Below are positions 16,424 through 44,503 of a DNA stretch of 64,000 nucleotides, piece after piece. How positions within the stretch are numbered: the first letter of the stretch is position 1; every line of letters starts with the position of its first letter. This DNA is from a phage, in sequence record MZ956761.1; one strand, 5' to 3'. The position numbers and the translations under genes are program-made. The notes beneath the pieces are model-generated. The model made no database searches. It was not told the DNA's origin and was given only the letters and a program-made list of their open reading frames with translations.

Positions 16424-19564
<3,141 letters not shown>

Positions 19565-42088: not shown

Positions 42089-42161
42089 TGGGAATTAGCC
42101 AAGTTGGTAAGGCATAGCACTTTGACTGCTAGATGCAAAGGTTCGAGTCCTTTATTCCCAG
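42089..42161 (+). tRNA. tRNA-Gln (anticodon TTG)
   Basis: Hand-folded cloverleaf: acceptor TGGGAAT/ATTCCCA, T-loop TTCGAGT, anticodon loop CTTTGAC. Confidence 0.7.
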
Positions 42162-42162
42162 C

Positions 42163-42249
42163 GCGAGAATGGTCAAATTGGTAAAGGCACAGCACTTAAA
42201 ATGCTGCGGAATGATTTCCTTGTGGGTTCGAGTCCCACTTCTCGCACCA
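42163..42249 (+). tRNA. tRNA-Leu (anticodon TAA)
   Basis: Acceptor GCGAGAA/TTCTCGC, long variable arm, encoded CCA. Confidence 0.75.
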
Positions 42250-42254
42250 AATTT

Positions 42255-42328
<74 letters not shown>

Positions 42329-42338
42329 ATTTAATCTA

Positions 42339-42412
42339 CTCCGTGTAGCTCAGTTTGGTAGAGCGCCTGATTTGGGATCAGGAGGTCCAAGGTTCAAATC
42401 CTTGTATGGAGA
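42339..42412 (+). tRNA. tRNA-Pro (anticodon TGG)
   Basis: D-arm TAGCTCAGTTTGGTAGAGC, anticodon loop TTTGGGA, T-loop TTCAAAT. Confidence 0.7.
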
Positions 42413-42414
42413 CT

Positions 42415-42504
42415 GGAGGCGTGGCAGAGTGGTTTAATGCACCGGTCTTGAAAACCGGCAGTCGCTCCGGCGACTCATAGGTTCAAATCCTATCGCCTCC
42501 GCCA
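42415..42504 (+). tRNA. tRNA-Ser (anticodon TGA)
   Basis: Acceptor GGAGGCG/CGCCTCC, long variable arm, anticodon loop CTTGAAA, CCA. Confidence 0.75.
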
Positions 42505-42509
42505 GTTTT

Positions 42510-42585
42510 GCTGATTTAGCTCAGTAGGTAGAGCAACTCACTTGTAATGAGAAGGTCGGCGGTTCGATTCCGTCAATCAGCACCA
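42510..42585 (+). tRNA. tRNA-Thr (anticodon TGT)
   Basis: Acceptor GCTGATT/AATCAGC, anticodon loop CTTGTAA, CCA. Confidence 0.75.
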
Positions 42586-42586
42586 A

Positions 42587-42661
42587 GGCCCTGTAGCTGG
42601 AAGGTTCAAGCAAGCGACTCATAATCGCCAGATGGTGGTTCAATTCCACCCAGGGCCACCA
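42587..42661 (+). tRNA. tRNA with CAT anticodon (Ile2-type or Met)
   Basis: Acceptor GGCCCTG/CAGGGCC, anticodon loop CTCATAA, CCA. Confidence 0.65.
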
Positions 42662-42674
42662 AATTAAGAATTAA

Positions 42675-42761
42675 GGGGAGTTATCCCGTAGAGGTAGCGG
42701 TGTGGACTGTAAATCCATTGTCATTGCGACTCGGGTGGTTCGACTCCATCACTCCCCACCA
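42675..42761 (+). tRNA. tRNA-Tyr (anticodon GTA), type II
   Basis: Perfect 7-bp acceptor GGGGAGT/ACTCCCC, anticodon loop CTGTAAA, long variable arm, T-loop TTCGACT, CCA. Confidence 0.6.
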
Positions 42762-42765
42762 ATTT

Positions 42766-42840
42766 GGATGTGTAGCTCAATGGCAGAGCGATCGCCTGTT
42801 AAGCGATTGGTTATAGGTTCGAATCCTATCACGTCCGCCA
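42766..42840 (+). tRNA. tRNA-Asn (anticodon GTT)
   Basis: Acceptor GGATGTG/CACGTCC, anticodon loop CTGTTAA, T-loop TTCGAAT, CCA. Confidence 0.65.
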
Positions 42841-42954
42841 AATTTGTGACAACTGTCACATTAATATCTACTTGACGCGATTATAGGGGTTGAACTGATC
42901 ACTCTTCTCTTAATTTCGTGTGAAGACATCTTGATTGTTGGAGTAGGTATTAAT

Positions 42955-43030
42955 GTGGCCGTAGTTCAGTTGGTAGAACTCGAGATTGTGATTCTCGTAG
43001 TCATGGGTTCGACTCCCATCGGTCACCCCA
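42955..43030 (+). tRNA. tRNA-His (anticodon GTG)
   Basis: Acceptor GTGGCCG/CGGTCAC, anticodon loop TTGTGAT, T-loop TTCGACT, CCA. Confidence 0.6.
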
Positions 43031-43034
43031 ATTA

Positions 43035-43110
43035 CGGGGCATAGCTCAGAAGGAAGAGCAAGGACCTTCTAAGTCCTAGGTCGTAGGTTCGATCCCTACT
43101 GCCTCGACCA
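43035..43110 (+). tRNA. tRNA-Arg (anticodon TCT)
   Basis: D-arm TAGCTCAGAAGGAAGAGC, anticodon loop CTTCTAA, T-loop TTCGATC, CCA. Confidence 0.7.
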
Positions 43111-43126
43111 ATTAAGTGAGGAAAAT

Positions 43127-43477
43127 ATGAAAGGTAATGTTTATTTAGTAGTTCATGATTTAACATTCTATTTTAATCATAATGACACTGTTATTTCTGA
43201 ACGTGTAATTAATTTGCTTTATCAGCACGCAGATTATGTTTATGTCGAAAACGAATATGGTCATTGGCAATTTCTTAAAAATCGTTCATTTGGCTTAGAT
43301 GGTTACGAATACTTTGAACGTAAAGACCTTTTAGATAAAATTCCGTTATCTACACAATATCAAAATCACAAATCTTTATATAAATGCCGACCAATTCGAA
43401 ATGTTGAATCCGCGTATGAAGCAATTGATTTATGGCGTAAACGCCGTGAACAGATTGATGCTTTAAAAGAATATTAA
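43127..43477 (+). CDS. hypothetical protein downstream of tRNA cluster
   Basis: 116-aa ORF with GAGGAAAA SD. Confidence 0.5.
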   Translation: MKGNVYLVVHDLTFYFNHNDTVISERVINLLYQHADYVYVENEYGHWQFLKNRSFGLDGYEYFERKDLLDKIPLSTQYQNHKSLYKCRPIRNVESAYEAIDLWRKRREQIDALKEY

Positions 43478-43479
43478 GA

Positions 43480-43785
43480 AACCGGGTCGCTACCGGTAAG
43501 TCGTCGGACTGATGTTCCCTGAGTAAGGAATTGTGTTAATAAATCTTTATGATTTGTTGATGCCCTCTTACATCACAGCAGAAACGGCGCACCGAATTAT
43601 CGATTCGAGGAAATATCTTTGCCATAAGCCGAGTAGCGTTTTTGACGGAACGTTCGGATATGGTCGAGATATGGCCTTTTAAAAATATTGAGTAGCGTCA
43701 ACTACTTAATAACCGGGTTCGAATCCCGGCGTTTCGTACAAACACTTGCCTTAGCAGGTGGAACCCCGACAAGGTTGCCGCAAGG
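43480..43785 (+). ncRNA. putative small stable RNA(s) (T4 species 1/2-like), tRNA-like elements
   Basis: About 300 bp without ORF; canonical T-arm-like CCGGG-TTCGAAT-CCCGG; ends at a terminator hairpin. Confidence 0.3.
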
Positions 43786-43816
43786 CTTAGCCCCGACCGA
43801 AAGGTTGGGGCTTTTT
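43786..43816 (+). repeat. 31-bp direct repeat with terminator hairpin (left copy)
   Basis: CTTAGCCCCGACCGAAAGGTTGGGGCTTTTT, identical to the copy at 44341. Confidence 0.7.
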
Positions 43817-43818
43817 AG

Positions 43819-43826
43819 TATAAATA
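43819..43826 (+). promoter_or_regulatory. T4-type late promoter (TATAAATA)
   Basis: Exact TATAAATA about 37 bp upstream of the ATG at 43863. Confidence 0.45.
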
Positions 43827-43862
43827 AGTATATTAAAACCACGAATTAAAACAGGAAATAAG

Positions 43863-44336
43863 ATGAAATCATATGCTCAATTTTTAAATGAAGCGGTGTT
43901 AAATGAAGCATCTAGCACCGAAATTCAAGCTGTTGCAAAAGCTGCCATTGCCGCGGGTAAATATTCCTATAAGGATGCTTCCGATGAATCACGATTCCAA
44001 TTTGCTCGTGATATGAAAGCCGAAGGATTTACAGGGAATGCAGTTAGTATGGCTTGGAAAAGTTTAGTTGCTACTGGAGCTGCTTTTGCAAAGGCTTCAG
44101 GTAAACCTGCTCCTAAGGCTGACCCTAAAGCAGCACAAGAAAAAAATATTGCTAAAGGAATTATCTCTAGGTATGAAGCAATTCTTAAAGAACTTTTGAT
44201 AATTAAGACCGAAGGCCAGAAACTTGCGCGAGCTCATAGTTTCAAAGATAATCCACATGCTCATGACCTAGAGTATGTTGAAGACATCCAAAAAATTATT
44301 AAAGACCGCATTTGGTCTGCTAAACAAATCAAATAA
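43863..44336 (+). CDS. capsid-targeting-tag protein (internal-protein-like), 157 aa
   Basis: N-terminus MKSYAQFLNE resembles the IP tag MKTYQEFIAE; late promoter upstream; flanked by identical 31-bp repeats. Confidence 0.5.
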   Translation: MKSYAQFLNEAVLNEASSTEIQAVAKAAIAAGKYSYKDASDESRFQFARDMKAEGFTGNAVSMAWKSLVATGAAFAKASGKPAPKADPKAAQEKNIAKGIISRYEAILKELLIIKTEGQKLARAHSFKDNPHAHDLEYVEDIQKIIKDRIWSAKQIK

Positions 44337-44340
44337 CATT

Positions 44341-44371
44341 CTTAGCCCCGACCGAAAGGTTGGGGCTTTTT
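44341..44371 (+). repeat. 31-bp direct repeat with terminator hairpin (right copy)
   Basis: Identical 31-mer immediately after the stop of the 43863 ORF. Confidence 0.7.
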
Positions 44372-44503
44372 GGTATCTAGGCCTTTCCGGGCCTCTCTAG
44401 GCATCATTTAGTTTATACCCTTTATAATATATTATCCTACCTTTTAATTGCCCCTCCTGACCCTAGAATTCCCTAAAAATTTTTAAAATTTTTTCACAAA
44501 ACG

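Follow-up and report, generated by a model that had tools for sequence, protein, structure and literature searches.

The question raised by the structured interval that follows the transfer RNA (tRNA) genes in phage sequence record MZ956761.1 is which RNA or RNAs it specifies; it was examined here within the 64,000-nucleotide (nt) stretch of that record, referred to as the window. An earlier note on the bare sequence had described positions 43480-43785 as a region free of open reading frames (ORFs) and adjoining the tRNA cluster, with a possible RNA equivalent to those of phage T4. It is virtually certain that rnaD and rnaC, the small stable RNAs of T4, have their orthologues in this interval, with a trailer of hairpins and a terminator downstream, but the true unit runs from 43474 to 43816 and comprises two independent RNAs. 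Both RNAs are already known from textbook T4 biology, and their function was still called unknown in papers of 2010, 2022 and 2025 (PMC3014915, PMC9697503, PMC12685909). The unit is composed as follows:

43474-43593, + strand: rnaD (species 2 RNA) orthologue, 120 nt, mapping to T4 71053-71171 (NC_000866)
43594-43599, + strand: spacer of 6 nt between rnaD and rnaC, from pairwise alignment with T4
43600-43738, + strand: rnaC (species 1 RNA) orthologue, 139 nt, mapping to T4 70908-71046
43739-43788, + strand: 3' trailer with three small hairpins (43743-43760, 43762-43776 and 43777-43786)
43789-43816, + strand: intrinsic terminator of the tRNA/rnaD/rnaC transcription unit

A BLAST search of phage genomes matched >800 T4-like records, and Escherichia phage ADUt was 100% identical to the window over the 501 nt queried. 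Pairwise alignment of 43474-43816 gave ~96% identity to rnaD, rnaC, the trailer and the terminator of T4, where the counterpart of rnaC and rnaD is 70908-71171 (NC_000866), and the curated annotation over the match is rnaD (species II RNA) plus rnaC (species I RNA) in T2L (AJ880101), RB10 and T4 (NC_000866). The earlier suggestion that this is the site of the two T4 small stable RNAs is thereby borne out. The window shares with T4 the order of elements (i.e. rnaD, 6-nt spacer, rnaC, trailer, terminator) and the strand of the tRNAs, and the lengths agree closely (120 versus 119 nt for rnaD, 139 versus 139 nt for rnaC). All 139 positions of rnaC aligned with T4 70908-71046 with two substitutions, and covariance model R1 scored rnaC at 168 bits in the window and 167.3 bits in T4. 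For rnaD, homology to T4 71053-71171 and a location directly upstream of rnaC were confirmed, the scores with covariance model R2 being 136.9 bits in the window and 115.5 bits in T4. rnaC is the last RNA gene of the tRNA unit, 3' of rnaD and 5' of the terminator, on the strand of the tRNAs. In T4, rnaC and rnaD accumulate as discrete RNAs and RNAC was detected as a transcript on a northern blot with a probe whose sequence corresponds to rnaC nt 1-58 (PMC9697503). By homology, this blot speaks to the refuting condition named in the earlier note, a lack of any stable transcript.

The trailer including the terminator (78 nt) is ~96% identical to T4, and 43739-43788 is conserved in T4, T2L and RB10. 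The terminator hairpin (43789-43812) has a stem of 10 base pairs (bp), seven of them G-C, a GAAA loop and a following T-run (TTTTT); a terminator at the end of the region had been correctly anticipated, although it falls just beyond the proposed end at 43785. Transcription of T4 likewise terminates after the species I gene (PMC2330249). The motif CCCCGAC occurs twice in the trailer (43764-43770 and 43791-43797) and either copy could pair with GGUUGGGG (43804-43811), making an alternative to the terminator hairpin conceivable.

RNA folding gave a z-score of -6.2 for the + strand of 43474-43816 as compared to -3.25 for the reverse strand, both against shuffled controls, and of -5.2 and -3.1 for rnaC and rnaD alone on the + strand, so that the description of this region as structured stands. 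Covariance models R1 and R2 score rnaC and rnaD, respectively; a search of this type had been proposed as a check in the earlier note. No Rfam family reached its threshold here: only 11 tRNAs passed the gathering thresholds in a scan of the window, with no family for rnaC or rnaD and none of the known phage small-RNA or Y RNA-like families, and a permissive scan of 43050-43900 yielded, besides the truncated tRNA-Arg, no match with E < 0.5.

The architecture of rnaC was modelled from the minimum-free-energy fold and covariation, and we hold with high confidence that its secondary structure is a tRNA-shaped four-way junction. Its predicted parts are:

43601-43607, + strand: 5' strand of the acceptor-like stem, CGAUUCG, pairing with 43730-43736
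43608-43677, + strand: long arm in the D-arm position, 70 nt, with a 3-nt GUA bulge
43642-43647, + strand: apical loop UUGACG of the long arm, putative kissing partner 1
43686-43711, + strand: 10-bp hairpin in the anticodon-arm position, with compensatory changes in 9/10 pairs
43696-43701, + strand: loop CGUCAA of the 10-bp hairpin, putative kissing partner 2
43713-43729, + strand: T-arm CCGGG/UUCGAAU/CCCGG (5 bp, 7-nt loop)
43730-43736, + strand: 3' strand of the acceptor-like stem, CGUUUCG, followed by U-A (43737-43738)

Homologues of rnaC were gathered by BLAST, pattern scans of IMG/VR and model R1, giving 28 distinct sequences from Tequatro-, Mosig-, Gapriver-, Kagamiyama-, Karam-, Moon-, Kanagawa- and Gelderlandvirus and from Klebsiella (Marfa-like) phages. 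When 16 sequences were aligned with MAFFT, compensatory changes appeared in 12/46 pairs; in the model-fitted alignment of all 28, 97.2% of cells were paired and 30/51 pairs were compensatory, as compared to only 35-48% paired when the partners were slid by 1-3 columns. At least one covarying pair was found in every helix except the basal stem (3 bp) of the long arm. The acceptor-like stem consists of 7 bp (i.e. five Watson-Crick pairs and two conserved U.U), of which the third covaries between A-U (12 sequences) and G-C (16), and the middle pair of the T-stem covaries between G-C (13) and U-A (13). The long arm carries compensatory changes in 18/22 pairs of helices 3 and 4; in Kanagawavirus, Gelderlandvirus and Klebsiella phages its sequence is wholly different whilst the topology is kept, purine-rich bulge included. 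A linker of 8 nt, A/U in composition, separates the long arm from the 10-bp hairpin, and the T-arm begins 1 nt after that hairpin and joins the acceptor 3' strand directly, as in tRNA. The T-loop reads UGCAUGC in the IME523 clade, and the tail is U-ACA in most lineages including the window and U-CCA in the Klebsiella-phage clade only. A K-turn or loop-E reading of the GUA bulge was considered and rejected, as the sequence is off consensus.

The T-arm-like element CCGGG-TTCGAAT-CCCGG, on which the earlier note had dwelt, is present at 43713-43729 on the + strand within rnaC. It is the sole match in the window even when two mismatches are allowed, and 0/100 shuffles contained one. The T-loop core GGTTCRANTCC has just two occurrences outside tRNA genes, one in this element and one at 17331; the latter (GGTTCAAATCC, 17331-17341, minus strand) lies inside a 610-amino-acid (aa) ORF, has no flanking stem and was set aside as a chance match. 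A tRNA-like RNA had also been suggested, and the T-arm does belong to a complete acceptor/T-arm minihelix of rnaC.

Resemblance to canonical tRNA (RF00005) extends to the acceptor-type stem (7 bp), which continues without a gap into a T-stem of 5 bp capped by the loop UUCGAAU, the four-way junction, the location in tRNA arrays with tRNA-like spacing and, in one clade, the U-CCA tail. The 7-bp acceptor is coaxial with the T-arm in the model, with one covarying pair in each helix. In contrast to tRNA, rnaC has no D-arm or D-loop but a 70-nt arm in their place, its 'anticodon' arm is 10 bp long and ends in a loop of 6 nt, probably paired with a second loop, its acceptor has two conserved U.U mismatches, and most lineages lack CCA, the tail in the window being U-A-C-A. 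Neither RF00005 (29-bit threshold) nor ARAGORN found a tRNA in 43474-43816, and the best tRNA-clan match to rnaC was tRNA-Sec, whose 17 bits (E = 2.2) fall short of the 47-bit threshold. Searches for transfer-messenger RNA (tmRNA) found none in the window by ARAGORN and no Rfam tmRNA match. In some Enterobacter phages (also PG7 and SonariX), ARAGORN and the depositors label the 3' two-thirds of rnaC as a 95-nt 'tRNA-Met (CAT)', which is likely to be a mis-annotation.

Several non-tRNA RNAs are excised by tRNA enzymes, i.e. the tRNA-like domain of tmRNA, the YrlA/Y RNAs and mascRNA-type elements. In concept rnaC resembles these, as its acceptor/T-arm mimic would borrow ribonuclease P (RNase P) and tRNA 3' processing, and such mimics may, as proposed below for rnaC, bind tRNA-binding proteins. 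It differs from tmRNA in having neither a tag ORF nor a pseudoknot ring and from Y RNAs in having no Ro/Rsr-binding stem; there is no sequence or covariance-model relation to tmRNA, YrlA or mascRNA, and the long bulged arm and the putative kissing loops are further differences.

The two apical loops of rnaC, UUGACG and CGUCAA, are exact reverse complements, and we consider that they probably form a kissing loop, which may be intramolecular. Both are constant across two unrelated types of long arm, the surrounding stems having diverged completely, and the Klebsiella-phage clade has UUGGCG with CGCCAA, a compensatory A-U to G-C replacement. The six inter-loop pairs hold in 28/28 distinct sequences, the single compensatory double change representing one evolutionary event; between some pair of the three loops, an uninterrupted run of six Watson-Crick pairs is expected by chance in ~0.3% of cases (11 registers x 4^-6). 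The calculated cost of freeing the loops is 0.2 kcal/mol, as compared to -5.5 kcal/mol gained from the duplex. Three more IMG/VR scans gave no further loop variants, and a metagenome scan for kissing-loop variants produced only two copies, of the Klebsiella type. Most gapped-pattern matches in IMG/VR were due to chance and were rejected by R1, and the matches to a 16-mer scan were likewise mostly chance. Known kissing complexes include HIV TAR/TAR* (6-nt loops, 6 bp) and ColE1 RNA I/RNA II. As in TAR/TAR*, two hairpin loops of 6 nt are fully complementary in rnaC; unlike in TAR/TAR* or RNA I/RNA II, both reside in one molecule, on neighbouring arms of the four-way junction.

This complementarity also bears on the idea that rnaC and rnaD are small regulatory RNAs that base-pair with host or phage messenger RNAs, which we regard as very improbable. 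They are small, stable, structured and phage-encoded, as such regulators would be, and have been termed 'small regulatory RNAs', without data, in PMC9697503; however, the best-conserved loops of rnaC complement each other and are not free, no Rfam family of small regulatory RNAs was matched, and a BLAST comparison of the whole unit with 5,426 E. coli genomes, a search that is insensitive to short seed pairing, returned no similarity or antisense match.

For rnaD, the models describe, again with high confidence for the secondary structure, a separate RNA made up of a 5' hairpin and a long stem with a replaceable apex:

43481-43497, + strand: 5' hairpin, 5-bp stem ACCGG/CCGGU with 7-nt loop GUCGCUA
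43500-43506, + strand: 5' strand of basal stem P1, GUCGUCG, pairing with 43585-43592
43522-43572, + strand: variable apex, of T4 type in the window
43585-43592, + strand: 3' strand of basal stem P1, CGGCGCAC

The closing pair of the 5' hairpin changes from A-U to G-C in RB10, mogra and one further homologue, and the stem is UCGGG/CCCGA in W70. P1 closes the long stem and is almost invariant (GUCGUCG/CGGCG(C)AC), its CGUCG/CGGCG portion being kept in 21/21 distinct sequences with one pair switched from G-C to C-G in four. The second helix covaries over its whole length (UGUU/ACAG in T4-like phages, UUUAAU/AUUAAA in Karamvirus, AGAAUU/AAUU(U)CU in Jiaodavirus), and a UCCCUG segment is invariant. 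At the apex, at least three unrelated sequences occur among phages (T4, T2L/BW-1, JS98 and W70/Karamvirus types), showing that it was replaced several times; as compared to T4, the apex in the window exhibits a few point differences. In MAFFT alignment A7, 94% of cells were paired and 9/23 pairs were compensatory, with 34-49% for slid partners, and with R2 and 21 distinct sequences 13/23 pairs were compensatory. Two further readings of rnaD were rejected, namely a K-turn or loop-E in the internal loop, which is off consensus and not conserved across genera, and a tRNA-like or CCA-ended RNA, as the 3' end varies (CACC, CACA, GCC).

The pattern of substitution in the two RNAs can be set against the proposal that the locus encodes small proteins, as implied by many GenBank 'hypothetical protein' entries. 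Two mechanical ORFs do exist (43533-43682, 49 aa; 43688-43849, 53 aa), and hypothetical coding sequences lie under the match in many T4-like genomes. The start of the 49-aa ORF is not conserved (GTG here versus GCG in T4), length differences are not multiples of three (e.g. 115-122 nt for rnaD among phages), the substitutions are pairwise-compensatory in an RNA-like manner, and the T4, T2L and RB10 annotations define RNAs at the locus. Small proteins can hardly be its products, and the earlier claim that the region contains no ORF was right in substance. Many Tequatrovirus records carry 'hypothetical protein' coding sequences over rnaC and rnaD, which are likely mis-annotated.

Comparison across phages showed that rnaD and rnaC occur independently of each other as modules within tRNA clusters and are widely distributed. 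The ~28 distinct homologues of rnaC derive from at least nine Tevenvirinae genera. In JS98 (Dhakavirus), rnaD is present and rnaC is precisely absent, with rnaD joining the trailer hairpin CACUUGCC...GGUG directly; in Karam-, Moon-, Kanagawa- and Jiaodavirus and in Klebsiella phages, rnaD-like RNAs are found elsewhere in the tRNA cluster; and in two Vequintavirinae phages (W70 and A73) rnaD directly follows a T-even-like tRNA-Met. A pattern scan for rnaC in 185,579 species-representative genomes gave 0 matches. The corresponding pattern for the rnaD core had 19 matches in species-representative genomes, mostly in high-GC actinobacteria, all of which were rejected by R2 (best E ~0.2). In the rV5-like phage W70 (and also A73), the tRNA-Met is nearly identical to that of the window (42587-42661) and is followed by a full rnaD homologue scoring 104.9 bits with the covariance model; on sequence grounds, this points to a block comprising the tRNA and rnaD having been transferred horizontally between phage families.

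Such a distribution is relevant to whether the RNAs are functionless leftovers, with rnaC a decayed tRNA gene and rnaD a spacer RNA, both surviving by virtue of their structure within a tRNA operon. Both RNAs do lie inside tRNA arrays, rnaC retains only the acceptor/T-arm half of a tRNA and is missing from JS98, the apex of rnaD is freely replaced, and on laboratory hosts the phage can do without the tRNA region. Decay is nevertheless difficult to square with the conservation of sequences and loops over at least nine genera with many compensatory substitutions, with loops that stay invariant and mutually complementary whilst the adjacent stems diverge completely, with the carriage of rnaD into Vequintavirinae or with an adaptive mutation that restores a base pair in rnaD (PMC12685909). 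The leftover explanation was judged distinctly unlikely.

How the RNAs are produced was approached through their genomic context. Eleven tRNA genes occupy 42089-43110 on the + strand of the window and are separated from the RNA genes by one further feature:

43127-43477, + strand: 116-aa ORF (T2L 'trna.2 protein' type, PHROG 3355) between tRNA-Arg and rnaD, with no Pfam match

The belief that the RNA region adjoins the tRNA cluster was thus mistaken, as this ORF intervenes between tRNA-Arg (which ends at 43110) and the RNA genes; its TAA stop codon (43475-43477) overlaps the first bases of rnaD. By contrast, T4, RB10 and JS98 have no ORF at this point and rnaD starts 1-4 nt after tRNA-Arg (1 nt in T4). 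Because of the inserted ORF, the 5' end of rnaD must form otherwise here than in T4. The 5' end of rnaD lies within a few nt of a tRNA 3' end in T4, JS98, W70, Karamvirus and Jiaodavirus. Outside Tequatrovirus, rnaC follows a tRNA after 5-8 nt in six lineages (EcS1, Ecl_id4496, Melville, Ursula, IME523 and kv_tblp8), and in the three of these with a next tRNA (EcS1, Ecl_id4496 and Melville) it precedes that tRNA by 6-11 nt; these gaps equal the spacing typical of tRNA-tRNA junctions. As the RNAs lie between tRNA genes outside Tequatrovirus, processing of the neighbouring tRNAs should release both. A one-mismatch copy of the late-promoter consensus (TATAAATG) is found at 43379 within the 116-aa ORF, ~95 nt before rnaD.

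In T4, a single precursor of ~1.75 kb spans eight tRNAs together with species I and II (PMC2330249). On sequence and context, rnaC and rnaD are in all likelihood co-transcribed with the tRNAs and processed in the manner of tRNAs. The precursor of T4 species 1 undergoes RNase P processing. An acceptor/T-arm minihelix is the minimal substrate of RNase P (see PMC11143913). Both RNAs would thus be cut from a long tRNA-cluster transcript by the host tRNA-maturation machinery, with the 7-bp acceptor-like stem of rnaC, stacked on the 5-bp T-stem with its 7-nt T-loop, serving as the handle for RNase P and 3' trimming. The ends of rnaD may be set by the processing of its neighbours, with the terminal P1 helix protecting it, and closed terminal helices would stabilise both RNAs. 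The idea of a processing substrate, raised in the earlier note, fits the joint transcript in T4 (PMC2330249) and the placement of the RNAs between tRNA genes in other genera.

A role confined to cis (i.e. a module for 3' processing, stability or termination, or a regulator of the downstream genes, with the excised RNAs as by-products) would suit the arrangement in Tequatrovirus, where the unit ends the operon and is followed by hairpins and a terminator, and the locus was termed regulatory by the authors of PMC12685909. The T4 late-promoter consensus TATAAATA at 43819-43826 could be cited in its favour, being located directly after the terminator T-run and upstream of an inserted ORF. In most other genera, however, rnaC and rnaD sit in the middle of tRNA arrays without terminator or trailer, discrete RNAs accumulate in T4 (PMC9697503), and a processing handle would not need conserved apical kissing loops. 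We regard a purely cis-acting role as unlikely.

A functional clue is provided by phage BW-1, in which a single T-to-C single-nucleotide polymorphism (SNP) at 164264 was common to each of the three lines that had been adapted to E. coli ECOR34, the virulence index increasing from 0.17 to 0.98 (PMC12685909). Mapping of this SNP on OR125554.1 placed it at A76G of rnaD (RNA strand), within the apical hairpin of T2L type. The ancestral apex (CACAGU-UUU-ACUAUG) has a C.A mismatch, whereas the evolved ACUGUG regains a C-G pair and equals the T2L sequence; the change lowers the calculated fold energy of rnaD from -25.9 to -31.0 kcal/mol. The noncoding RNA range given in PMC12685909 (164080-164336) matches the rnaD/rnaC boundaries mapped here, and a pair-restoring reading of the SNP is absent from the interpretation in that paper. 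Because the adaptive SNP restores a base pair in rnaD, the modelled structure argues that folding of rnaD matters in a host-dependent way.

On balance, and with moderate confidence, the locus as a whole is best explained as orthologues of T4 rnaC and rnaD that would be released in tRNA fashion and may act in trans as non-decoding RNAs. Kissing of the long-arm loop UUGACG with CGUCAA would close the fold of rnaC, make it resistant to nucleases and leave no anticodon-like loop free. rnaC might be a mimic, its target being some factor that reads the acceptor/T-arm side of tRNA. For rnaD, the proposed working part is the conserved basal helix (CGUCG/CGGCG, UCCCUG), the apex being replaceable. Both RNAs would act in trans as stable, non-decoding molecules conferring a host-dependent advantage. 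The weakest step is the assignment of a trans-acting mimic or a host-range/counter-defence function to the two RNAs, which we put forward only tentatively. In one version, rather doubtful at present, they would be host-range or counter-defence RNAs: rnaC as a closed, tRNA-shaped decoy, an idea already raised in the earlier note, that through its acceptor/T-arm face sequesters or redirects a host tRNA-directed factor, with candidate targets including a nuclease of a tRNA-targeting defence or an enzyme of maturation or modification, and rnaD as a second structured effector whose correct folding decides virulence on natural E. coli isolates, in line with the pair-restoring SNP of BW-1. In the modelled fold, sequestration of the 'anticodon' loop argues against rnaC being a decoy for anticodon nucleases, and its conserved acceptor/T-arm face could engage tRNA-binding factors.

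Several considerations weigh against this interpretation of the locus. Deletions of the T4 tRNA region grow on laboratory hosts, ~50 years have passed without a demonstrated function for either RNA, and JS98, which has no rnaC, indicates that rnaC is dispensable in some lineages. As regards tRNA mimicry, rnaC is not recognised by the tRNA models, one clade has lost the T-loop consensus (UGCAUGC) and a CCA end is encoded in the Klebsiella-phage clade only. Covariation in the putative kissing loop comes from a single evolutionary event, intermolecular dimerisation of rnaC would leave identical covariation, and docking would require an arm of ~25 bp to bend onto one of 10 bp in a geometry that is hypothetical. 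Pair counts from alignments A5 and A8, which were fitted to the models, are biased towards the structures. Placement of the BW-1 SNP assumes that the coordinates of PMC12685909 are those of OR125554.1, with which the identity of the base and the noncoding RNA range agree.

Other features of the surroundings were recorded. Downstream of the unit, a direct repeat of 36 nt (97% identical; 43786-43821 and 44341-44376), each copy with a whole terminator hairpin, flanks a 157-aa ORF (43863-44336; PHROG 2280), and past the second copy the sequence rejoins that which follows the single terminator in T4, T2L and RB10 (GGTATCTAG). Judged by this layout, the 157-aa ORF looks like a cassette inserted via terminator duplication or recombination. 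Within the tRNA cluster, an ORF-free spacer of 114 nt (42841-42954) containing the palindrome TGTGACAACTGTCACA separates tRNA-Asn from tRNA-His; since tRNA-Arg directly follows tRNA-Asn in T2L and RB10, tRNA-His and this spacer look inserted. The tRNA-Tyr gene (42675-42761) scored 30.2 bits against the Rfam threshold of 29, whilst the other ten tRNAs scored 59-74 bits.

To our knowledge, and leaving aside papers of the 1970s-80s, the covariation models for both families, the proposed kissing loop, the finding that rnaC and rnaD are independent and more widely distributed, and the structural reading of the BW-1 SNP are additions to what was known of these RNAs. As neither RNA has an Rfam family, the region is entered in hundreds of deposited T4-like genomes as 'hypothetical protein' or as a 'tRNA-Met' of 95 nt, and models such as R1 and R2 would mend such mis-annotation. 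The BW-1 SNP is the only adaptive mutation reported in the rnaC/rnaD locus; taken together, the architecture of rnaC, the independence of the modules and the reading of this SNP bring the question of function within reach of a handful of point mutants. Phage tRNA clusters have come to be viewed within an arms race with tRNA-cleaving defences, and conserved non-decoding RNAs within these clusters are obvious candidates for a part in it.

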